Shown here one piece after another: positions 3 to 12,986 of a stretch of 12,986 bases of DNA. The translations under genes and the position numbers were made by a program. How positions within the stretch are numbered: position 1 is the stretch's first letter; the number at the start of each line of letters is the position of its first letter. Origin of the DNA: Candidatus Heimdallarchaeota archaeon (GTDB lineage Archaea > Asgardarchaeota > Heimdallarchaeia > JABLTI01); assembly GCA_030614005.1 (NCBI GenBank), contig JAUWKS010000083.1:1-12986 (forward strand). Reading direction: 5' to 3'. The notes beneath the pieces are model-generated. The model saw nothing but the letters and a program-made list of their open reading frames with translations. It was not told the origin of the DNA and ran no database searches.

Positions 3-794
3 TATCACGCATCTCCAGATAATAATCTTCTAACTATCGAAGGTCAGAAAACAATAGGTCTAGAAATTGTCTTGCAGAAAGACACCATAGATAGTATAAT
101 TGTGCCAAGAGGTTCTGGATCACTAATATATTCCATTTTTCGAGGTTTTGAAGATGCAATTACCTCAGGATGGATTAAAGAATTCCCAAAGATTTACGCT
201 GTTTCATTAGAAAAAACAAAAGTAGCTCATTTAGCAGAATCATTAGAGATTACAAAGGTATTTCTTCTTGAAGAAGTGAAAAAGATAATTAAAAGAACAA
301 ACGGAAATGAAATAGAGATCGACGCTGAGTCTATGTTAGATGAAGCTATAATTTTAGCCAAAAATGAAGGACTATTTATTGAACCAGCATCTGCATCAGT
401 ATTAGTTGCTGCTAAAAATCTCATCCAAGAAGATCTGATAGATTCAAAATCTAGTGTTGCAATCTTGTCCGGTTCTGGATTAAGTACACTCAATGTTTAC
501 GCTGCTAGGTTAAGAGGAAAGAAGAAAGTTGTTTGGGGATTATCAGAAAGCTCAACTACAAAGTTTGAAATTCTCAATCTTATAGCTGGTAAAAAGGCTG
601 ATTATGGTTATTCAATCTGGATTTCTTTGGGAAAGAACCAATCTCTCCAATCAATCTATCAACATCTAGCAGAATTAGAAGAAAAGGGTTTGATTGTTCC
701 TAGTGAGAAAGAAGTTAAAAGAAAACACTATGAATTATCAAAAAAAGGTCTAGAAACTTTGGATAATATGCGAAATTTGATAGACTATCTATGA
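3..794 (+). CDS. 5'-truncated threonine synthase-like PLP fold type II protein with C-terminal PadR-family winged helix-turn-helix domain (putative one-component regulator)
   Basis: Frame is open from position 3 (YHASPDNNLLTIEGQKTIGLEIVLQKD...), so the track start at 72 is not the real start. ThrC-like motifs: IEGQKTIGLEI, IIVPRGSGSL, EGLFIEPASA, ILSGSGL. From nt 561 a PadR-like pattern: FEILNLI...YGYSIW...SLQSIYQHLAELEEKGLI...KRKHYELSKKG. Confidence 0.8.
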   Translation, partial: YHASPDNNLLTIEGQKTIGLEIVLQKDTIDSIIVPRGSGSLIYSIFRGFEDAITSGWIKEFPKIYAVSLEKTKVAHLAESLEITKVFLLEEVKKIIKRTNGNEIEIDAESMLDEAIILAKNEGLFIEPASASVLVAAKNLIQEDLIDSKSSVAILSGSGLSTLNVYAARLRGKKKVVWGLSESSTTKFEILNLIAGKKADYGYSIWISLGKNQSLQSIYQHLAELEEKGLIVPSEKEVKRKHYELSKKGLETLDNMRNLIDYL

Positions 795-2286: not shown

Positions 2287-3927
2287 ATGCTCCGCATAAG
2301 GAATTTATCAGTCAAATATCAATCAGATAAAAGATATGCTCTTAATTCTGTAAATATTAACGCAGAAGCTGGTGAGTTCATTGTAATTGCTGGTCCCAGT
2401 GGAAGTGGTAAAAGCACTCTAGCAAATGTAATTATGAGCTTGATACCTAATTTCATAAAAGCAGATATTAATGGAATAATCGAGTTTAACGATGAATCTA
2501 TTTTTAGTTTGGACAGAAAAGAATTGATTAAATTATTAGGATATGTACCTCAATATCCTAGTGATTTCACTACATCTTTATTAGTTGAAGAAGAGATAGC
2601 GTTTGTTTTAGAAAATCTTGCAATTGAAGCTAATGAAATTAATAAAAGGCTTGATTCTATTCTTGATCTATTAAAGATAAAACATCTGAAAAAACGATTA
2701 ATTACTGAATTAAGCTCTGGAGAATTACAGAGAGTAGCTTTGGCTGTTGCAATTGTAACAGAAGCCCCTTTGATAATACTCGATGAACCTATTGCAAGAA
2801 TTGATTCAAAATCTGAAGTCATGTTAACTGAATTATTAAGAGATATTGCAGACAAAGGTCATTTAGTTATAGCTTTTGAACACCGACTAGATTACATATT
2901 GCAAAAAGCTGATAGACTCATCATATTAGATGAAGGTAAAATAATTTCAGATGACCTACCAAAGAAAACGGTTAATTTGTTGAAGAATATTGATCCTCCA
3001 GAAATATCTACACTTGAATGTTCATCAAAAGAACAAATACTACTAATTGAGGAAGCAGTTGAGAAATGCAGAGCTCTTTTTACAAACTTATCTGAAAGAC
3101 AATACAATCTTAACGACCAGAGGTTTGCAAATAATGAGAATGATGTTTCGGTTAGATTGGATAACATTAGCTTTCGATATAACTCCAAAACATCTATGGT
3201 TCTGAAAGACATAGATCTATCTTTGTATGCTGGTCAATCTATTGGATTAATGGGTATTAATGGTAGTGGAAAATCTACTCTTTTGAAAGTCATTTCAGGC
3301 ATTAATAAAACAGCAAGTGGTGAGATTTATCTTAATGATTCAAGAGTTAAAAGCATAAGGAAAAGTAAAAATCATGTGATATTAGTTCCTGAAAATGCTA
3401 AACTGTTTTTGATAGGTCCAACTCCTTTCCGTGATTTATCTCGAATTATTAAAGAACCAAAAACAATTCACTCATTGTATAAGGAAACCGCATTAACTCC
3501 CCTTATGAATAAGAAACTCTATCATTTAAGTGAAGGAGAAAGAAGGTTGTTTGCTATTGTAAATGCTTTCCAATTCTCTGATGAAATTATCATAATTGAC
3601 GAACCAACCATTGGTTTAGATAAATGGGGGAGAAAGATTCTTTCTAATCTAATTAGAAGTGCTACAGCTAAAAATAAGACAGTAATAATAGCTTCTAATG
3701 ATCCTAGGATTTTTGTTGATCTTGATAGATTAATTGTTATTCAAGATGGTAACATAAAGCTAGACGGAAACCCAAGAAAAGTTCTTTATGAACTAGAAAA
3801 TAAAACTGACTTAATTCCAAATCAAATTGTTTGTTTCATCCAAATGATGGAAGAACAATTCCAATCAAAATTACCTCATTTCGTAAATACGAATGAAGTA
3901 AATGAATTTCTAAGGAGTGTTAAATAG
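2287..3927 (+). CDS. ecfA: ECF transporter ATPase, fused tandem A-A' nucleotide-binding domains
   Basis: Two Walker A motifs (GPSGSGKS, GINGSGKS), two signature-like motifs (LSSGE, LSEGE) and two Walker B/D-loops (IILDEP, IIIDEP). GAGG SD. Stop abuts the ecfT start. Confidence 0.9.
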   Translation: MLRIRNLSVKYQSDKRYALNSVNINAEAGEFIVIAGPSGSGKSTLANVIMSLIPNFIKADINGIIEFNDESIFSLDRKELIKLLGYVPQYPSDFTTSLLVEEEIAFVLENLAIEANEINKRLDSILDLLKIKHLKKRLITELSSGELQRVALAVAIVTEAPLIILDEPIARIDSKSEVMLTELLRDIADKGHLVIAFEHRLDYILQKADRLIILDEGKIISDDLPKKTVNLLKNIDPPEISTLECSSKEQILLIEEAVEKCRALFTNLSERQYNLNDQRFANNENDVSVRLDNISFRYNSKTSMVLKDIDLSLYAGQSIGLMGINGSGKSTLLKVISGINKTASGEIYLNDSRVKSIRKSKNHVILVPENAKLFLIGPTPFRDLSRIIKEPKTIHSLYKETALTPLMNKKLYHLSEGERRLFAIVNAFQFSDEIIIIDEPTIGLDKWGRKILSNLIRSATAKNKTVIIASNDPRIFVDLDRLIVIQDGNIKLDGNPRKVLYELENKTDLIPNQIVCFIQMMEEQFQSKLPHFVNTNEVNEFLRSVK

Positions 3928-4653
3928 ATGTCTTTTATGTTGAGAAGAATATATGACGGATTTCTTTTTAAACCAGACAGGTTTCATATCCATCCTTTGC
4001 TTGGGTTAACAATTATTCTACTACAATTTGGTTTTCTAATACCCAATATAAATTGGTCTCTTGCCCTTCTCCTATCATTTGTCATTCTTGAGAATATAAT
4101 ATTTAGAAATATTAGAGGATCACTAAGCATTCTATGGTCACTCCTTCCTGTTATTATTATTCTCGGTGGTTTAACTTTTCTTTTTGGAGGATGGTTACTC
4201 TGTTTTCGAGTACTATCTAGATTCTTTATTGGTGCAATAGGTTTTTCCTTTTTCTTTACCTCAACTAACCCATCAGATTTAACCAGATCTTTAGAAAAAC
4301 TGTACTTAGGTTCAAAGGTAGCTTTGATACCTTCCTTAGCTCTTGTAATAATACCTCGTATTGCTAAAGATTCTGAAGATACATTCAACACTTTACGTTT
4401 AAGAGGTGAGATTCAAGGAGGTTTTTACCGTTGGTTACCAAAAACATTAGCTATACTCATTGCTTCGGTTATCTATAGATCCGAATTCTTAGCTCAATCA
4501 CTTTATTTCAGAGGATTTGGTATTCAAAAAAGAACTCATTACAGAAAAATAAAGATGACATGGATGGATGTAAGTAGATTGGTCATTTGGGTAACCTTCC
4601 TTACTTTGTTTATTACTTTTAATTATTATGGGACTCTTAATTTCTTTGTTTGA
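3928..4653 (+). CDS. ecfT: ECF transporter transmembrane T component (CbiQ/EcfT family)
   Basis: Hydrophobic protein with TNPSDLTRSLEKL and two X-R-G coupling motifs (LRG, FRG) in the C-terminal half. Abuts ecfA (TAG ATG). Confidence 0.85.
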   Translation: MSFMLRRIYDGFLFKPDRFHIHPLLGLTIILLQFGFLIPNINWSLALLLSFVILENIIFRNIRGSLSILWSLLPVIIILGGLTFLFGGWLLCFRVLSRFFIGAIGFSFFFTSTNPSDLTRSLEKLYLGSKVALIPSLALVIIPRIAKDSEDTFNTLRLRGEIQGGFYRWLPKTLAILIASVIYRSEFLAQSLYFRGFGIQKRTHYRKIKMTWMDVSRLVIWVTFLTLFITFNYYGTLNFFV

Positions 4654-4678: not shown

Positions 4679-6043
4679 TCAGTCTATTTCTAAATCCATC
4701 TCTGATTGCTTCGCTTTTTCCCTAATGATTCTCTTTTTTGAAAGATCATAGAAACTTGCCATTAAAATGATACCAATAACAAAACAAATTATTGGTACAA
4801 CTACGATAAGTAGTTTAATTCCAATTATTGCAGTTTCAGTTTGTTTGTATGCATTTCCATTGTAACCTGTCAATCCAAGTATCAATGAAATCACTGATGC
4901 TTCCAAGATCATTGCAATTCTTACAGCGAATCCATAAAAACCAAAAAAAAGACCTTCTCTGTTTTTACCATATTTGTGATAGTCATCATCGATGATTTCT
5001 CCAATCAGAATCTCTGGAATGAGCATCAATCCGGCTAAAGGAGCACCAATTATTCCCATAAGGACAATAGTACTTAAATTAGTAGTAAAGAAGAACAAAG
5101 GTATTAATATTAATGAAAAAAGTACAGCACTAGTAAGAAAAACAACTTTTGGACCCTTTTTAAATGACACTCTTGCCCAAACAATGAAGAAAATTGCAGC
5201 AGTTACTACTCCAGCCCCATATATGTAACTTTCGAATTTTGCAGGTTGATTCAGTATCCATTTATTGAAATAAGGAACCATAGCTAGAAGAGTCAAATAA
5301 GCTATATTTGCAAAACAAAAAGAAAACAGGAAAGCAATATAATTCTTATTTTTCAAAACTTCTTTCAATTCGGCTAAGTATGAACCACTTTGAGGTTTAA
5401 TGGTTTTCATTATTTCTTTATCTCTGCAACCATAAATAGATAAAATAAAACCTAATAGAACAAAACCTGCTATAATTAAAATGGCTTTACGATAGGATTC
5501 AAGATTGTTGTATTCAAAAATCAATGGACCAATTACAACTGATACTATTACACCTATGACAGCTATCAGTTGTCTCAATGCAGCAACAAGGTTTCTCTCT
5601 TTTGTTGTTTTAAATTTCTCCGCATACAATGTCTGCCAGTTAAGAATAACAATTGTGTATAAAGTATCAAAGATAAGTAGAGAAGTAATAAAATATAGAA
5701 AAATTTTTACCTGATTTTTACTTTCTACTAAGGATATTGGAATAAACCAAATAGCTACAAAAGCTATTGTTAGAGGTATGAATCCAAATAAAATATAGGG
5801 GAATCGCCTTCCAAATCTAGTCCGTGTTTTATCTGATAACCAGCCAAATAATGGATCATTAACTGCATTCCATATAGCATAGATGGTCATAACAATCGGA
5901 ATATAAATTATATTTAGTTTCACTTCATCAGTATAAAAATTGTAAATTCTTGTATTAAAGAAATTAATAAGTATAGCACCTGAAATTGCTAATGAAGCAT
6001 ATGATATAATATTGAAAGTTCGTTTTTTTTTATCTGATTGCAA
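4679..6043 (-). CDS. MFS transporter, glycoside-pentoside-hexuronide (GPH/MelB-like) cation symporter family
   Basis: Hallmark IWNAVNDPLFGWLSDKTRTRFGRRFPY motif, many hydrophobic segments, and the loop DDDYHKYGKNREGLFFG. TTG start. Confidence 0.88.
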   Translation of the reverse strand: MQSDKKKRTFNIISYASLAISGAILINFFNTRIYNFYTDEVKLNIIYIPIVMTIYAIWNAVNDPLFGWLSDKTRTRFGRRFPYILFGFIPLTIAFVAIWFIPISLVESKNQVKIFLYFITSLLIFDTLYTIVILNWQTLYAEKFKTTKERNLVAALRQLIAVIGVIVSVVIGPLIFEYNNLESYRKAILIIAGFVLLGFILSIYGCRDKEIMKTIKPQSGSYLAELKEVLKNKNYIAFLFSFCFANIAYLTLLAMVPYFNKWILNQPAKFESYIYGAGVVTAAIFFIVWARVSFKKGPKVVFLTSAVLFSLILIPLFFFTTNLSTIVLMGIIGAPLAGLMLIPEILIGEIIDDDYHKYGKNREGLFFGFYGFAVRIAMILEASVISLILGLTGYNGNAYKQTETAIIGIKLLIVVVPIICFVIGIILMASFYDLSKKRIIREKAKQSEMDLEID

Positions 6044-6065: not shown

Positions 6066-6084
6066 AATATAAAAATGTTTAATC
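6066..6084 (-). promoter_or_regulatory. Candidate TATA box for a leaderless MFS transcript
   Basis: Minus strand GATTAAACA-TTTTTATATT. TTTATA at 6073-6068 ends 25 nt before the TTG at 6043. No SD is visible. Confidence 0.35.
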
Positions 6085-6543
6085 ATTTATGAAAAAAGCT
6101 GCTACTTCCTCAACTGCTTTTAGAATCTCTTCAGAAACTTCACCCATGAACGTTAAATCCTTTACTTGGGCTCCGATAAGCTGAAATTTTTTACCTTTCA
6201 CTTCAATAATGTTTTTTATTTGCTCATAAGGGATAGTATGAGTTGATATTTGTGTTATTTTTGTATCAAAATCGTTTTTTACGATGATTTCGCCTGGTTT
6301 ACCATGGAAATCTACAGCATCAATGAGAAAAACATGCTGTACTTGCTTATTTTCAATCAAATCGAATAGAAAAACAGATAGGTCGTTATCTAGCTCAGAA
6401 AAAACCTTTTCGGGGTATTTTTCTTTAAGTTTTTCACCTACTAATATACCAAAAGAATCATCAGCTCTATCGCTATTTCCAAGACAAATAAAAGCGTATT
6501 TTTCAATTTCTGAAGAAGAAAAAAAAGGGAGGGATAGAGGCAA
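6079..6543 (-). CDS. Hydrogenase maturation endopeptidase (HycI/HybD, peptidase A31 family)
   Basis: CLGNSDRADDSFGILVGEKL, VFLIDAVDFHGKPGEI and STHTIP motifs. Directly follows the large subunit. GGTGA SD 8 nt before the TTG. Confidence 0.9.
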   Translation of the reverse strand: MPLSLPFFSSSEIEKYAFICLGNSDRADDSFGILVGEKLKEKYPEKVFSELDNDLSVFLFDLIENKQVQHVFLIDAVDFHGKPGEIIVKNDFDTKITQISTHTIPYEQIKNIIEVKGKKFQLIGAQVKDLTFMGEVSEEILKAVEEVAAFFIND

Positions 6544-7830
6544 TTACTCTTTCACCAATTTAACCATATGACAGCTGCATGAGATGCATGGGTCATAAGC
6601 TCTAGCAATCATTTCCAAATGAAGTTCAGTATCAGGATTGTCTTCTGCTAATAATTTCTCTGCAGCCACCCAAATGTATTTTTCAATATCATCTAAGAAT
6701 TGAGCTGTAGGTGTAATAATATCTGCATTGACAATTTTTCCATCTTTGATTTCATATGTATGATATAAAGTACCTCTTGGTGCTTCTACTGCAGCGGTTG
6801 CTGTACCATCTAATACCTCAGGAATGACCATTTCAGGATCGGGTAAAGCTTTGATTTTTTCGATGAGAATTGGTATTTGTTCAAAAGCCCAGAGTGCTTC
6901 AATTGCCTGACATAAGTTATTATATATAGGATTTGACTTCCAGCTTTCATTGAAATATTTATCATACTTCTCTTTTGCTTCACCTGTTAATCTATCACCA
7001 ATTAAAGCAAGTCTTGCTAAAGCACTAACCGAGAAAGGTTTGTCTTGATATTTTGATCGTTTAGCATAACTATGAGGAACAACTCTTTCATTTGTCATTT
7101 TCTTGTATTCTTCTACTGGATATTCCTCACCTGTAGAAATAAGGATTGTATCTCCTTCAAAACCAAATTTACCATCAGCTGGATTACAGCACATGAAAGT
7201 AGTATCTCTAACACCATATTCTGGTATTGGTAATGTTGCCATAAGATCAATAATGGCTGATACCCAAGATTGATATTCTGCTGCGTTTTCAAGGAATTTG
7301 TCTAATTCTTCATTTGTTGGTATCCGTCCAAATCCACCAATTTGAGGATTCTCTCCGTGTATTTTTCTTCCCATAAGAAGTTGCATCAATTCTGTACCGT
7401 ATTTTTTCATTACAACTGCTTGAACCACAGTTTCTTTGTGAGTTGCTAGTAATGCAATAGCAGAAGGTTGCTTGAAGAAATCAGGTAAAGCTAGATAATA
7501 AACATGCAAAATGTGTGATTCTACATATTCAGCAAGATGCATAAGTTCTCTAAGCAGTTTAACCTTCTCAGGAACCTTTACTTTAAGGGCTTTTTCAATC
7601 GCTTTAATTGAAACATTTCTATGAGAAACTGTACAAATAGCACAGATTCGAGAGACTAAAGAAAGAGTTTCTGTGTATGTCTTCCCTCTAACAAGAGCTT
7701 CAATCATACGTGGTCCTTCAAAGATATCAACTAAGACTTTATCCACTTTACCATCTTTGGTAAAGACTTGAATTCCTCCGTCACCTTCTACTCGGGAAAT
7801 AACATCAACACTAATTGTTTTTTCAGCCAT
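6544..7830 (-). CDS. hydA: Group 3b [NiFe] hydrogenase (sulfhydrogenase) large/alpha subunit
   Basis: SRVEG, L1 RICAICTVSH, EAPRG, L2 RAYDPCISCSCH plus a 7-residue cleavable tail. ATG at 7830 is preferred over TTG 7836 because GGTGA (7841-7837) sits 6 nt upstream. BGDA gene order. Confidence 0.93.
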   Translation of the reverse strand: MAEKTISVDVISRVEGDGGIQVFTKDGKVDKVLVDIFEGPRMIEALVRGKTYTETLSLVSRICAICTVSHRNVSIKAIEKALKVKVPEKVKLLRELMHLAEYVESHILHVYYLALPDFFKQPSAIALLATHKETVVQAVVMKKYGTELMQLLMGRKIHGENPQIGGFGRIPTNEELDKFLENAAEYQSWVSAIIDLMATLPIPEYGVRDTTFMCCNPADGKFGFEGDTILISTGEEYPVEEYKKMTNERVVPHSYAKRSKYQDKPFSVSALARLALIGDRLTGEAKEKYDKYFNESWKSNPIYNNLCQAIEALWAFEQIPILIEKIKALPDPEMVIPEVLDGTATAAVEAPRGTLYHTYEIKDGKIVNADIITPTAQFLDDIEKYIWVAAEKLLAEDNPDTELHLEMIARAYDPCISCSCHMVKLVKE

Positions 7831-7832
7831 TT

Positions 7833-8624
7833 TCAATCACCTTTTAACGCTTGTTCGACTTTATTGCCGCCAAACAACTTCAATTTTCTAATTACTTCTT
7901 CTTCTGATAGACCAATTTCCTTTAATTTATCAATCATGGAAGGATAATTTGCACCTTCGTATGTACCAAAACAGCCTATACAGGAAATATCAATGCTGGG
8001 ACAGGTAGCGTTACAACCTGCAGCTGTTACTGGTCCTAAACAGTATTTTCCATGAAGTAAGAAACAATCATTTCCTTCATATTTACATTCAACACAAACT
8101 GGCATTGGATACTTTTGAGGTAATAAACCACTGATCAATTTTGTATAAATTGGAACAAAGTTTTCAGCAGAAATAGGACAGCCTGGAATCATGATATCGA
8201 CATCTATGTACTCACTGATTGGTTGAGCAGGTCTGGGTTGTCCTACAAGATCTAAAAATTCGGGAACCTCACCACTCTTACCATAGACATATTCCATTCT
8301 TTCTTTGAATGTTTCTACATCTTCACCAAGATATTGAATTCCACCATAGCAAGCGCATGTTCCAAGTGCAACAACAACGTCAGCCATCTCACGTATTTCT
8401 TTGAGTTCTTTTAGTTGCCTTTCAGTATTAATACTTCCTTCAACAAGTGCAATATCAACTTTTGGAACTTCTTGATGAGATTGAGCCATATGGAAAAATT
8501 TGATATCAGCACTTGTAAAGAAATCAATAGTACTATCTTCCATATGAAGAATAGCTAATTGGTCTCCTGCACATCCAGAAAAACCAAAAATACCAACGAC
8601 GGGTTTCTTTTCTCTTTGCCACAT
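7833..8624 (-). CDS. hydD: Group 3b [NiFe] hydrogenase small/delta subunit (Fe-S)
   Basis: SGCAGDQL, VEGSI, ALGTCACYGG, PGCP, PVCVEC...C...CLGPVTAAGCNATCP...CIGCFG. GGAG SD. Located between hydG and hydA. Confidence 0.92.
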   Translation of the reverse strand: MWQREKKPVVGIFGFSGCAGDQLAILHMEDSTIDFFTSADIKFFHMAQSHQEVPKVDIALVEGSINTERQLKELKEIREMADVVVALGTCACYGGIQYLGEDVETFKERMEYVYGKSGEVPEFLDLVGQPRPAQPISEYIDVDIMIPGCPISAENFVPIYTKLISGLLPQKYPMPVCVECKYEGNDCFLLHGKYCLGPVTAAGCNATCPSIDISCIGCFGTYEGANYPSMIDKLKEIGLSEEEVIRKLKLFGGNKVEQALKGD

Positions 8625-9485
8625 TTAGATCAACTCCTTGATGTGTTGAACATCATAATACGTGAAAACTGGTCCTTCTAAGCAAGTATATCTTCCTCCA
8701 ACTGCACAATGTCCACAGTGTCCCTGACCGCATTTCATTCGTCTTTCAAGTGTCATTAAAATCTGATCTTTTGGAATGTTAAGTTTTAACAATTCTTGAA
8801 TAACAAATTTATACATTATTGGAGGGCCGCAAATTATTGCGGTTGTATTCTCACTGTCTATTAGTTCTCCTAGTTTTGGGATTAATTGTGTAACGAAACC
8901 AACATTATAGGGCCATTCACCAGTATCATCTTCATCAACTGCTAGATGAGTATCAATAATCTGTCTTTGATTCATTGCGATAAAATCTCTCTTGTAAAGC
9001 ATATCCTTCGGACTTCTTGCTCCATTTAAGAAGAAAACCTTATTGTATTCTTCTCTTCTATCTTCTATATAGAGTAAAACAGATCGTAATGGTACTGCGC
9101 CTAATCCTCCTGAGACGATTATAAGATCTCTACCTCTCAGGTCTTCCATTTCAAAACCATCTCCATATGGACCTCTTATGTCAATTGTATCTCCTTTTTT
9201 GAGTTTGAAAAGAGCTTCTGTAAAAGATCCAACTTTTCGAATACCGAATTCTATGAAATCTCTTCTTGTTGGAGTTGAAGATAATGAGAATGTGGCTTCA
9301 CCTACTCCTGGGAGGGAAAAGATAACAAATTGTCCTGGTCTATATTGGAAATCTTTGTTCATAGTAATATCTTTACATCTTAACTTGAAGTATCTTGTAT
9401 CGTCAGTCAAATCTCGAATTGCTAAAATTTCAGCTGGTTGAGTCTTGTATGTACTGATTTCTTCTTTATCTTTTGATGCTGTCAT
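8625..9485 (-). CDS. hydG: Group 3b hydrogenase gamma subunit (FAD/NAD(P)-binding, [2Fe-2S])
   Basis: RPGQF, GEATFSLSS, IRGPYGDGF, SGGLGAVPLRS, GARSPKD, ICGPPIM, ERRMKCGQGHCGHC...TCLEGPVF. GGAGG SD. ATGA overlap with hydB. Confidence 0.93.
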   Translation of the reverse strand: MTASKDKEEISTYKTQPAEILAIRDLTDDTRYFKLRCKDITMNKDFQYRPGQFVIFSLPGVGEATFSLSSTPTRRDFIEFGIRKVGSFTEALFKLKKGDTIDIRGPYGDGFEMEDLRGRDLIIVSGGLGAVPLRSVLLYIEDRREEYNKVFFLNGARSPKDMLYKRDFIAMNQRQIIDTHLAVDEDDTGEWPYNVGFVTQLIPKLGELIDSENTTAIICGPPIMYKFVIQELLKLNIPKDQILMTLERRMKCGQGHCGHCAVGGRYTCLEGPVFTYYDVQHIKELI

Positions 9486-10528
9486 TGGTCACAAACCTCC
9501 TGTGTTTCGCAAACTTCTTCAAAGAGTGCATTGGAAACAGTTATTACATTTATGTCAACCGGACAGTAGGCTATACACCGACCACATCCAACACAGCTTG
9601 GTTGTCCCCATCTGCCAATGTATTCTTTCAATTTGTGTGTATAGTATAATTTCAATCTTGCAGTTCGATCAGGTCTAAAATCATGATTACCAGCTACCAT
9701 TGAATAATAAGGTAGAGTGCAACTGTCCAACATCCTTTCTCTAATTCCTTCTTCTGCATTCATCATTATTTTATCATCTACATGGAAACAGTTGCATGTT
9801 GGACATACCAAACTACATGTTCCACAAGACAGGCATTTTTCCCCGAATTGTTCCCAAACGTCACTATCATAGTTCAAATGTATTATATCTGCTAGATACT
9901 TATATGAGGGAATTGAGGTCGTGAACATACTTGATCTCTCTTGTTGCCATCTAACATATTCTTGAATCTCTTCTTCAGAAACATTTTCTTCAAGCAAATT
10001 CTCTGCTTCAATAGCGATACCTAGACCTTTGTCTGACCCTACCCATAGTAGGTAGAAGTCATCCAATTCTGTTAAAAATAGATCAAATCCATCTTCAACC
10101 ATATCTGTACCTGTAGATTGACAGACGCATTTATCATCTGGTAAACAAGAATGTCCGATAATTATTAGATTTTCACGTCTTTTAGCATAATATGGATCTT
10201 TGATATTTCCCAAGAACAATCTGTCCAATATCTTAATCGCATGAATATCACATGGATGAACTCCCATTACTATTTGTGGTTCATCATCTGGAAGAACTTC
10301 TGTTTGTCCAAATTTTACGAATCGTAAAGTTGAATATTTAGCAGGAGTAATAAACTTTTTCGGACTAATGATCGTTCTTTGATAGTCAAAATCTAACTCC
10401 GAAAAATCTTTAATTTCCTCAAAGGAATATTTCTCTTTTTGTTTAACTGGTCCAAAAAGCTTCCCCTTACTTTTTATTAGTTCTACGAACTCTGGAAACT
10501 TCTCTTTAGACATTTTATACGTCTTCAT
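9482..10528 (-). CDS. hydB: Group 3b hydrogenase beta subunit (4Fe-4S dicluster; AsrA/HydB family)
   Basis: GVHPCDIHAI...D, CLSCGTCSLVCPTCNCF and CVGCGRCIAYCPVDI ferredoxin motifs. First gene of the BGDA operon. Confidence 0.92.
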   Translation of the reverse strand: MKTYKMSKEKFPEFVELIKSKGKLFGPVKQKEKYSFEEIKDFSELDFDYQRTIISPKKFITPAKYSTLRFVKFGQTEVLPDDEPQIVMGVHPCDIHAIKILDRLFLGNIKDPYYAKRRENLIIIGHSCLPDDKCVCQSTGTDMVEDGFDLFLTELDDFYLLWVGSDKGLGIAIEAENLLEENVSEEEIQEYVRWQQERSSMFTTSIPSYKYLADIIHLNYDSDVWEQFGEKCLSCGTCSLVCPTCNCFHVDDKIMMNAEEGIRERMLDSCTLPYYSMVAGNHDFRPDRTARLKLYYTHKLKEYIGRWGQPSCVGCGRCIAYCPVDINVITVSNALFEEVCETQEVCDQ

Positions 10529-10948: not shown

Positions 10949-11959
10949 ATGAATATAGAGGAAATTGAAGAGGAAAATATAACTAATAATAATAAATTAA
11001 AATTAGCTTTTTATTGGGCTGCTAGCTGCGGAGGCTGTGAGATAGCAGTTTTAGACATAAATGAAAAAATATTAGATGTTGTGGCTATAGCTGATATTCT
11101 TTTCTGGCCAGTGGCAATTGACACTAAGTATAAAGATGTTGAAGAAATGGTGGATAAACATATTGATGTTTGTTTCTTCAATGGTTCAATAAGGACTTCA
11201 GAACAAGAACATTTAGCTCATCTTCTTAGAAAGAAATCTAAAACAATGGTAGCATTTGGCGCATGTGCAGTTAATGGGGGAATTCCTGGTTTAGCTAATT
11301 TAGCAAGCAGAGAAGAAATATTCAACGTTTCGTATCTAGATAATCCCTCAACTTCTAATCCTCAAAAAACTTTACCAAAAACATCAGTTGAAGTTAAAGA
11401 AGGAACGCTTACTCTTCCCGAATTTTATGATGAAGTTAAGAGTCTTAATCAAGTGATTGATGTTGATTACTACTTGCCTGGATGTCCACCTCATCCTGAT
11501 ATGATCATGACCGCAATAGGAGCAATTGCAGAAAATAAACTTCCTGAGAAAGGTTCTGTTTTAGGACCACTAAAGTCAGTCTGTGATGAGTGTAAATTTG
11601 AAAAAACAGAAAAGAAAATTGATTCAATTAAACGGATATATGAACTTGATTTTATCGAAGACAAATGTCTTCTAGAACAAGGAATTATATGTTTAGGTCC
11701 AGCTACGAGAGGTGGTTGTTATGCTCAATGTCTAGATGCATTTATGCCTTGCACTGGTTGTGGAGGACCAGCTCCAAATTCTATTGATCAGGGCGCAAGT
11801 ATGATGTCAGCATTAGCATCCATCCTTGGATTAGAAGGAGAGGAAGAGATGAAAGAAGAGGAAGTAGAGAAACTGATTGAACAAATAGTAGACCCAGTCG
11901 GCACTTTCTACAAATACAGTTTACCTACAGCAATAATTAACAGGAAAGTGCAAAAATGA
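10949..11959 (+). CDS. mvhG: Group 3c (F420-non-reducing/methyl-viologen-reducing) [NiFe] hydrogenase small subunit
   Basis: KLAFYWAASCGGCEIA, FFNGSIR, AFGACAVNGGIPGL, YYLPGCPP, VCDEC, CLLEQGIICLGPATRGGC...C...MPCTGCGGP. AGGTGA SD 4 nt before the ATG. Confidence 0.9.
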   Translation: MNIEEIEEENITNNNKLKLAFYWAASCGGCEIAVLDINEKILDVVAIADILFWPVAIDTKYKDVEEMVDKHIDVCFFNGSIRTSEQEHLAHLLRKKSKTMVAFGACAVNGGIPGLANLASREEIFNVSYLDNPSTSNPQKTLPKTSVEVKEGTLTLPEFYDEVKSLNQVIDVDYYLPGCPPHPDMIMTAIGAIAENKLPEKGSVLGPLKSVCDECKFEKTEKKIDSIKRIYELDFIEDKCLLEQGIICLGPATRGGCYAQCLDAFMPCTGCGGPAPNSIDQGASMMSALASILGLEGEEEMKEEEVEKLIEQIVDPVGTFYKYSLPTAIINRKVQK

Positions 11960-12986
11960 CAACAATAACAATAAATCCAATTACACGATTAGAGGGCCAT
12001 GGAAAAATAATTATCTTCCTCAATCCTGAGGGAGATGTTGATAATGTTTATCTTCAAATACCAGAATTGAGAGGTTTTGAAAGATTTGCTCAAGGGAGAA
12101 GAGCTGAGGATATGCCTCAAATTACTTCTAGAATTTGTGGTGTATGCCCTGTTGCACATCATTTTGCATCAGCAAAAGCATTGGATAGAGCATTCAATGT
12201 AGACCCCCCAGTTGTCGCTAAGAAGCTCAGAGAACTTATGTATAGTGGTTATTTTATCTATGACCACATCCTTCATTTCTATTATCTAGGGGGACCTGAT
12301 TTTATTGTGGGTCCAGATGCACCAGCTGCTAAAAGAAATATTTTAGGTGTAATAGAAAAAGCTGGATTAGAAATAGGAAAAGAAGTAATTAAACACAGAG
12401 CGTATGGTCAAAAAATCACTGCAATATTAGGGGGTAAAGCTACTCATCCCGTTTGTGGACTCCCTGGTGGTGTTTCTAAACCTCTTTCAGATGAGGAAGT
12501 AAATGATATCAAAACAATGGTTACATCTTGCATTGACTTTGCTCAATTCACGCTAAAGATTTTTGATGATATTGTTCTTAAAAATGAAGACTATGTGAAC
12601 CTTATATTAAGTGATCCTTACACATTGAAAACGTATAACATGGGTCTTGTGGATGAAAACAACAAAGTCAATTTCTATGATGGACTCATTAGAGTTACTG
12701 ATACTAAAGGTAAAGAATTCCTCAAATTTGATGTAAATGACTATTTTCAACATATAGATGAGCATGTTGAGGAGTGGAGTTATATTAAATTTCCATATCT
12801 GAAAAAGATTGGTTGGAAAGGTTTTGTTGATGGTCAAGAAAGCGGCATTTATCGAGTAGGACCACTTGGCAGATTAAATGCAGCAGATGGGATGGCAACA
12901 CCTTTAGCAGATGCAGAATACAAAAGAATGTATAAAACTTTAGGAGGAAAACCTATCAACTCTACATTAGCTTTTCATTGGGCAAG
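11956..12986 (+). CDS. mvhA: Group 3c [NiFe] hydrogenase large subunit, 3'-truncated by window end (not in ORF track)
   Basis: ATG overlaps the mvhG stop (ATGA). Manual translation is open to the end: MTTITINPITRLEGHGKI...PELRGFERFAQGR...ITSRICGVCPVAHH (L1, nt 12130-12159)...HFYYLGGPDFIVGP...GGKATHPVCGLPGGVSK...YRVGPLGRLN...TLAFHWA. Confidence 0.93.
   Translation, partial: MTTITINPITRLEGHGKIIIFLNPEGDVDNVYLQIPELRGFERFAQGRRAEDMPQITSRICGVCPVAHHFASAKALDRAFNVDPPVVAKKLRELMYSGYFIYDHILHFYYLGGPDFIVGPDAPAAKRNILGVIEKAGLEIGKEVIKHRAYGQKITAILGGKATHPVCGLPGGVSKPLSDEEVNDIKTMVTSCIDFAQFTLKIFDDIVLKNEDYVNLILSDPYTLKTYNMGLVDENNKVNFYDGLIRVTDTKGKEFLKFDVNDYFQHIDEHVEEWSYIKFPYLKKIGWKGFVDGQESGIYRVGPLGRLNAADGMATPLADAEYKRMYKTLGGKPINSTLAFHWA

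Follow-up and report, generated by a model that had tools for sequence, protein, structure and literature searches.

A lysine-less threonine synthase fold joined to a PadR-like winged helix as a probable vitamin B6-responsive repressor in Asgard archaea

The stretch of DNA analysed here, referred to as the window, spans bases 1 to 12,986 of contig C27 from a 3.6-Mb archaeal genome (126 contigs, 90% complete), whose closest relatives are MAGs labelled Candidatus Heimdallarchaeota. At its start lies the gene of a protein that we judge likely to be a homodimeric, B6-responsive one-component repressor, built from a lysine-less threonine synthase (ThrC) fold and a PadR-like winged helix and controlling a vitamin B6 importer operon. 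The parts of the gene contained in the window are the following.

Positions 3-794, + strand: 3' part of the regulator gene, 263 codons plus stop (792-794), frame +3, open at the 5' end and truncated by the contig start.
Positions 3-473, + strand: sensor domain, C-terminal half only; ThrC-like (PALP, fold type II) on the evidence of Pfam PALP, a ThrC alignment and the AlphaFold2 model of an orthologue.
Positions 501-533, + strand: basic linker AARLRGKKKVV between sensor and DNA-binding domain, read from the sequence; the equivalent model residues 356-364 have a pLDDT below 50.
Positions 570-761, + strand: PadR-like winged helix-turn-helix, assigned from Pfam PadR, family-profile matches to solved PadR proteins and the model topology.

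The reading frame runs in from the 5' edge of the window, whose first base is also base 1 of the contig. About 184 N-terminal residues were removed by the contig start, and a tblastn search with the N-terminal 190 residues of an orthologue did not reveal the missing part elsewhere in the assembled genome, matching only the true ThrC. Within the window protein, Pfam placed PALP at residues 1-157 (E 9.6e-20) and PadR at residues 190-253, the latter with a marginal score (28.3 bits versus a cut-off of 27, E 1.8e-6); relatives reached 29-43 bits with the same PadR model (PF03551). Domain searches returned no aminotransferase or GntR match in the regulator. The sensor half carries the phosphate loop VPRGSGSL and the ring-nitrogen motif SGSGL. 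An earlier note on this sequence had described one frame joining a ThrC-like half to a PadR domain through AARLRGKKKVV, and both domains and the linker were indeed recovered. This architecture is directly observed and recurs in 94 database proteins and 131 genome loci, so the fusion is not an assembly artefact.

The 94 relatives were returned by a word-indexed search of 5.8 billion proteins. Mostly 445-460 aa long, they stem from Heimdall, Loki and Thor MAGs and include proteins of the cultured Promethearchaeum syntrophicum and Lokiarchaeum ossiferum. The best of them, P0001, is 94% identical across all 263 window residues. Full-length orthologues (92-94% identical, 447 aa) consist of a zinc ribbon, seen as CxxC...CxxC at the N-terminus of P0001, followed by a lysine-less ThrC-like domain and the PadR-like winged helix. 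A full-length match including the winged helix was present in 48 of 81 sampled Asgard genomes. While the PALP-PadR fusion was thus confirmed, it is not rare, falling inside the NCBIfam family NF004170, and the N-terminal zinc ribbon is an additional element.

AlphaFold2 modelling of P0001 (47 sequences; mean pLDDT 89, pTM 0.80) bore out the domain reading by yielding a ThrC fold plus a winged helix. Foldseek aligned the model with the ThrC structures 6NMX, 1V7C and 2ZSJ (E ~1e-22, TM 0.81-0.82 by target). A disordered linker at residues 356-364 is followed by a helix-helix-helix-wing-helix arrangement, with helices at 366-379, 386-392 and 399-411, two wing strands and a final helix at 431-446. 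The PadR assignment, which a failure to match winged-helix profiles would have refuted, likewise held: the C-terminal family profile matched solved PadR regulators, namely 5DYM (E 2e-7), then 4ESB, 3L7W, 9QBC and AphA. The top PDB match of this profile, 3JQH, was rejected as a repeat artefact of the short string 'QEIYQEL'. The putative recognition helix reads near-invariantly Q-x-x-Y-Q-H-L; DNA binding itself is inferred, there being no experiment on any member of the family.

We also modelled the protein as a homodimer. The model scored 0.90, compared with 0.34 for the best of three controls, with at least 45% of contacts shared between runs and a partner pLDDT of at least 85. Of 30 proteins whose structures were solved as pairs, 20 attain the mark applied to this score; of 23 solved as single chains, one does. 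Because ThrC dimers have already been solved, the pass may reflect the likeness to ThrC. Judging from the models, the regulator probably dimerises through a ThrC-type interface.

The Schiff-base position is located in the missing 5' part and hence unreadable in the window; it was therefore read from the orthologues. P0001 shows RNPTGSFRDRA at the position of SFKDR in ThrC, that is, an arginine in place of the Schiff-base lysine, and the same arginine was found in 12 of 12 and 47 of 47 aligned members as well as in loci 92-94% identical. The earlier note had called the enzyme part degenerate and had proposed looking for the lysine in an SFKDR-type motif; the full-length orthologues, with SFRDR instead, support this view. 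The strings that it quoted, VPRGSGSL, SGSGL and VSLEKTKVAHLAESLEI, are all present. The phosphate loop reads GSGSL in the regulator versus GGGTG/GNAGN in the genome's own ThrC, and the substrate-side segment, shortened to VSLEKTKVAHLAESLEI, represents a deletion relative to that enzyme. In addition, the arginine of the ThrC PYRLEGQKT motif is a threonine in the regulator, and the asparagine of ThrC ASTGN, which contacts PLP O3', is alanine or serine in Asgard members. An alignment of 47 diverse members has 25 invariant columns, roughly half of which fall within or next to the three PLP motifs. A separate canonical thrC, which the earlier note had suggested seeking, was found on contig C71 (PRK08197, 552 bits versus a cut-off of 303).

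The loss of the lysine is tied to the winged helix, as observed in a wider sample. The genome loci could not be used for this question because they had been fetched with a pattern containing the arginine; instead, P0001 served as the query of an index-free search of 1.84 billion representatives, and the best 150 were aligned. Among these 150, sequences with an aligned winged helix kept the lysine in four cases and replaced it in about 90 of 94 (R in 24, I in 27, L in 17, V in 6, T in 5, M in 4, and others), and full-length sequences without a winged helix kept it in 51 of 51, with no replacement. The only two arginine sequences without a winged helix among the best 150 are both N-terminal fragments. 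Several lysine variants were confirmed by Pfam as PALP plus PadR; their source labels are threonine synthase, and they originate from Asgard, Bathyarchaeota, Baldr-, Njord- and Korarchaeota. On this tally, lysine loss and the acquisition of a DNA-binding domain go together throughout a large archaeal superfamily.

Enzymes can double as repressors, as BirA, PutA and NadR do, and the protein might still be a DNA-binding enzyme, be it a ThrC variant or one with some other activity, dependent on PLP or not. Its PALP domain shows good conservation, with a mean column identity of 47-60% and the phosphate-loop glycines and SGSGL kept, but the substrate-side segments are deleted or changed. Four winged-helix-bearing relatives retain the lysine, against the roughly 90 of 94 among the best 150 in which it has given way, often to Ile, Leu or Val. 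The NCBIfam family name is threonine synthase and one relative, P0093, exceeds the cut-off; the Asgard members, however, reach only 265-281 bits on NF004170 versus the required 421. Full-length P0001 is far below the ThrC cut-offs (NF004170, 281.3 versus 421; TIGR00260, 96.5 versus 167.1), as is the window fragment (148.5 versus 421 and 42.1 versus 167.1), and the genome holds a full-scoring ThrC besides. We consider a retained enzymatic role highly improbable.

The family name itself calls for scrutiny. NF004170 (PRK05638) is an equivalog named 'threonine synthase', whose 442-position model spans the winged helix too; the window protein matches its positions 185-441. Since P0093, which passes this model (442.6 bits versus 421), also reads SFRDR, the name is very probably wrong for NF004170 proteins such as P0093. 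Revising it would correct a widespread annotation error, namely a 'threonine synthase' equivalog that covers proteins unable to form the catalytic Schiff base, and the mislabelling distorts metabolic reconstructions for Asgard and TACK archaea. More broadly, and with confidence only a little better than even, we see here a large, unrecognised archaeal superfamily of factors combining a lysine-less ThrC fold, a zinc ribbon and a PadR domain, in which the Arg-type proteins are B6 sensor-repressors holding PLP without a Schiff base and the Ile-, Leu-, Val- and Met-type proteins may sense other ligands. Its members are currently nearly all annotated as threonine synthase or 'pyridoxal-phosphate dependent enzyme'.

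The predicted target lies downstream of the regulator gene, on the same strand.

Positions 1353-1359, + strand: TATA-box-like TTTTATA of the ecfS promoter, inferred from reading the sequence, without transcript mapping.
Positions 1364-1385, + strand: predicted operator, the 22-bp palindrome TATACAAGTTgtAACTTGAATA, that is TATACAAGTT-gt-AACTTGAATA, 5 nt past the TATA box and 20 nt before the ecfS start.
Positions 1405-2241, + strand: ECF S component (ecfS), PdxU/HmpT family PF07155 (Pfam, 75.5 bits versus 26.7), predicted B6 importer and predicted target of the regulator.
Positions 2287-3927, + strand: fused EcfA-EcfA' ATPase with two ABC_tran domains (Pfam).
Positions 3928-4653, + strand: EcfT transmembrane component, CbiQ family (Pfam CbiQ, 35.7 bits versus 25).

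The identity of the target gene is plain, and ecfS is the only PF07155 gene in the genome. PF07155 includes PdxU and PdxU2/HmpT, which together with P5PA are the only three prokaryotic transporters of B6 vitamers or PLP to have been characterised (PMC9997740). The sole solved relative of the window S component is 4HZU_S, HmpT of Lactobacillus brevis, matched weakly (30.9 bits, E 2e-6). HmpT (4HZU chain S) binds and carries pyridoxamine (PMC4860826), and the glutamate aligned with HmpT Glu41 is kept in the window protein. We infer transport of B6 from the PF07155 membership, from this conserved glutamate and from the occupation of the ecfS slot by pdxS and pdxT elsewhere (see below), and accordingly the window S component is only predicted to import a B6 vitamer.

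To place this gene pair in context, 80 related genome loci were examined alongside the window, with ORFs called and 870 neighbours clustered. A PF07155 S component, present in 38 of the 81 loci, was the only partner to recur across different genomic settings. These 38 loci (24 from Asgard archaea, 14 from Bathyarchaeia or Desulfurococcales) represent several phylum-level lineages. The ecfS gene usually lies directly downstream of the regulator on the same strand; L079 and L087 have it in divergent orientation and L067 in convergent orientation, and in L058 it has been inserted into an otherwise conserved GHMP-kinase/threonyl-tRNA synthetase (ThrRS) neighbourhood. Neither ecfS nor pdxS adjoins the regulator in around half of the loci, and some Thermoproteota loci adjoin a GHMP kinase and ThrRS. 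Thermococcus is represented by the hits L072, L086 and L088. As partners, AMP-ligase, GatD/GatE, GHMP kinase and ThrRS were rejected, reflecting single-lineage synteny that is not common across clades; glycosyltransferases, a nuclease, an Mrp-type ATPase, arginase, TIM and an AIR-synthase-like gene were likewise rejected, each being confined to the gene order of one lineage.

The operator and its distribution are also a matter of observation. A strict, 18-base version of the palindrome has one match in the 3.6-Mb genome, which is the site at 1364-1385. In the Heimdall loci, the palindrome upstream of ecfS is recognisable and often near-identical, and variants of its AAGTT-N2-AACTT core precede ecfS in Loki (often in tandem), Bathyarchaeia and Desulfurococcales. 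The exact core occurs in 16 of 38 ecfS upstream regions versus 3 of 774 upstream regions of other genes, and two of these three matches are one and the same intergenic region. In the window, an A-rich, BRE-like stretch precedes the TTTTATA box, and related Heimdall loci show a similar AT-rich, TATA-like stretch at the same place.

The site also follows the gene when ecfS is remote from the regulator. Distances of 150 and 260 kb separate ecfS and the regulator in the complete genomes of Heimdallarchaeum aukensis and H. endolithica, and each ecfS still carries two tandem operators; in L. ossiferum, ecfS is 7 kb away, likewise with two tandem operators. No operator was detected at weak second PF07155 paralogues. 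Five Asgard genomes that lack the regulator served as a control: upstream of their pdxS or PF07155 genes, no site with up to one mismatch was found. Regarding autoregulation, no operator-like palindrome was present within 150 nt upstream of the regulator gene at 79 loci. Relaxed scans for a wider regulon in the window's genome gave weak or coding-like sites only (C30, C73, C10, C8, C56), which were discarded. The palindrome co-occurs with the regulator gene, and a homodimer was modelled; binding of the operator by a regulator dimer is inferred from this, without binding data. The near-invariant Q-x-x-Y-Q-H-L helix would fit an invariant operator core, which is an argument rather than a test.

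Two Heimdall loci connect the operator to PLP synthesis. In L020, the ECF slot is taken by pdxS (SOR_SNZ, 315 bits) and pdxT (SNO, 172 bits), preceded by TATACAAGATTTAACTTGAATA directly after a TATA box; in L018, TATTCCAGATTCAACTTGAATA and pdxS come immediately after the regulator. These loci bear on whether the regulator serves an ECF operon whose signal or substrate is not B6, but hydroxymethylpyrimidine/thiamine, riboflavin, or threonine/phosphohomoserine. PF07155 bears a riboflavin name in Pfam, and HmpT was first predicted to be a hydroxymethylpyrimidine carrier (PMC4860826); against both stand the pdxS genes behind the same operator, with pdxT following in the ecfS slot of L020, and a sensor that is itself a PLP fold. 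An AIR-synthase-like gene after ecfS in Bathyarchaeia has ThiL among its weak matches, but scores best as HypE and below every cut-off. GHMP kinase and ThrRS near the Desulfurococcales loci likewise count for a different signal, yet this arrangement is restricted to one lineage and in place with or without ecfS. Finally, the B6 kinase not found in the genome speaks for a different substrate, whereas the absence of PdxS from all tested genomes with the operator on ecfS speaks for B6. A signal other than B6 is therefore unlikely, although we do not dismiss it. The analysis supports the earlier note's inference of an enzyme fold turned ligand sensor, and of the ligands which that note put forward (PLP, phosphohomoserine or threonine), the regulon speaks for PLP/vitamin B6, not for the other two.

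Physiologically, neither PdxS nor PdxT was found in the window's genome (90% complete), and PdxS was also missing from five complete Asgard genomes in which both the regulator and an operator-bearing ecfS are present. These organisms appear to depend on imported B6. In the window's genome, no recognised B6 kinase (PdxK/ThiD family, PF08543) was identified either, which leaves the route from the imported vitamer to PLP incomplete. These data support the view that many Asgard archaea, including P. syntrophicum and L. ossiferum, lack the PdxS route and depend on a regulated B6 importer, a point relevant to Asgard syntrophy and cultivation.

For the preferred reading, a B6-responsive repressor, we propose the following mechanism. 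In the ThrC-like domain, a B6 compound (most likely PLP) would be held by non-covalent contacts and not turned over. The ligand is inferred: binding of a B6 compound is expected because the glycine-rich phosphate loop and the Ser/Thr-Gly-x-Gly ring-nitrogen motif are kept, and PLP binding without a Schiff base is unproven. ThrC-like domains would pair as ThrC dimers do, thereby bringing their two PadR-like winged helices to the 22-bp palindrome. This site lies just past the TATA box of the ecfS-ecfAA'-ecfT operon and overlaps its expected transcription start. With B6 plentiful, the liganded dimer would sit on the operator and block RNA polymerase; with B6 scarce, it would leave the operator and the importer would be made. 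In relatives, the same operator would control the PLP synthase pdxST instead.

The sign of regulation in this scheme is inferred from the position of the operator. An operator just past the TATA box, covering the expected start site, is the usual archaeal repressor placement. A B6-responsive protein with the opposite logic, acting as an activator or as a repressor released by its ligand, remains conceivable, as the sign has not been measured, and bacterial PdxR activates pdxST, going by references listed in PMC9997740. Against it stands a site that starts 5 nt past the TATA box and covers the expected start, and an end product that releases repression would imply positive feedback on uptake; both objections are inferences. 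We hold such inverted logic to be very improbable and retain ligand-dependent repression as the working model.

In the literature searched, we found no paper on a ThrC-like, fold type II or PadR-fused archaeal regulator, and no regulator of vitamin B6 homeostasis described for Archaea; the earlier note, too, knew of no characterised fold type II plus PadR regulator. The regulator family is widespread, mislabelled and experimentally untouched. If our reading is true, it fills the gap in archaeal B6 regulation with an independently assembled fold type II pseudoenzyme bearing a PadR winged helix, and it would be a clear case of convergent evolution from an enzyme fold to a cofactor sensor.

Three known systems serve as reference points. 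With ThrC (TIGR00260, PRK08197; 1V7C, 6NMX, 2ZSJ), the regulator has in common the fold, the N-terminal zinc ribbon, the motifs NPTGSF-x-DR, EGQKT and S/T-G-x-G-L and, probably, the dimer interface; it differs in the exchange of Lys for Arg and of GNAGN for GSGSL, the deleted substrate-side segment and the added winged helix. With the PadR family (PadR, LmrR, AphA; PF03551), it shares the winged helix-turn-helix topology and the C-terminal helix that follows, and it is likewise associated with a palindromic operator, here a predicted one. PadR proteins, however, are small (~110-180 aa), carry an N-terminal winged helix and bind their ligand at their own dimer interface, whereas the winged helix of the regulator is appended at the C-terminus to a sensor and dimerisation domain of 360 aa. 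The closest parallel in function is the MocR subfamily (PdxR, GabR, TauR), in which an enzyme-derived PLP-fold sensor is likewise joined to a winged helix. Members of the PdxR regulon include pdxST, pdxK and pdxU (PMC5320631); pdxST and pdxU are the two target types also predicted for the archaeal regulator. MocR regulators, reported to be absent from Archaea (PMC5320631), are defined by an N-terminal GntR-type winged helix and a fold type I aminotransferase domain with the Schiff-base lysine retained; in the archaeal protein, by contrast, the winged helix is C-terminal and of PadR type, the ThrC domain is of fold type II and lacks the lysine, and a zinc ribbon stands at the N-terminus. It is thus not a member of MocR, but analogous, not homologous, to bacterial PdxR.

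Two tandem copies of the predicted operator, roughly 20-30 bp apart, were located 5' of the S-component gene ecfS both in Loki loci (L032, L034, L035 and L037) and in Heimdallarchaeum genomes (L093 and L094), a duplication suggesting that two regulator dimers bind there cooperatively. The operator core, AAGTT-N2-AACTT, also occurs 5' of gatD in two Bathyarchaeia loci (L066:2748 and L060:2754), as an exact copy in L066 and with one mismatch in L060. Both loci share the gene row gatD-gatE-regulator, in which the regulator comes last. This core could reflect autoregulation via the operon, or it could be a chance occurrence.

Beyond the regulator and the ECF genes, the window holds the following features:

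843-1211, (-) strand: 122-aa ORF between the regulator and ecfS
4679-6043: GPH-type symporter
6079-10528, (-) strand: sulfhydrogenase-like [NiFe] hydrogenase operon with four subunits (ShyB/C/D/A-like) and a maturation protease
10949-12984, (+) strand: second hydrogenase small subunit (VhuG-like), after that operon

The 122-aa product starts with a hydrophobic, signal-like N-terminal segment and carries repeated, Cys-rich 'QDGTC' motifs; it matched no Pfam or NCBIfam model, and its gene (neighbour cluster c6) keeps the same position in 16 Heimdall loci. In the Heimdallarchaeum genomes, where this place lacks the ECF genes and the GPH-type symporter, the ShyB/C/D/A-like operon comes immediately after the regulator.

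Searching the whole genome carrying the window (G000, 90% complete) revealed neither PdxS nor PdxT, nor any kinase of the PdxK/ThiD family (PF08543). If B6 vitamers are taken up unphosphorylated, the corresponding kinase in this genome remains unidentified.

The state of the Schiff-base lysine varies among relatives bearing the winged helix. Two proteins with a PadR winged helix, P0102 from Bathyarchaeota (40.7 bits for this domain) and P0103 from Lokiarchaeota (31.5 bits), retain an intact lysine (SFKDR), and may be bifunctional or ancestral members of the regulator family. Many other fused relatives (representatives P0116-P0241) have Ile, Leu, Val, Met or Thr, not Arg, at this position; examples among them bear the source labels Njord- and Baldrarchaeia, plus one Korarchaeota label. 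Finally, the curated NCBIfam equivalog NF004170 (PRK05638), named 'threonine synthase', covers the winged helix as well, and the lysine-less P0093 scores above its cut-off (442.6 versus 421 bits); this model is a likely source of systematic misannotation.
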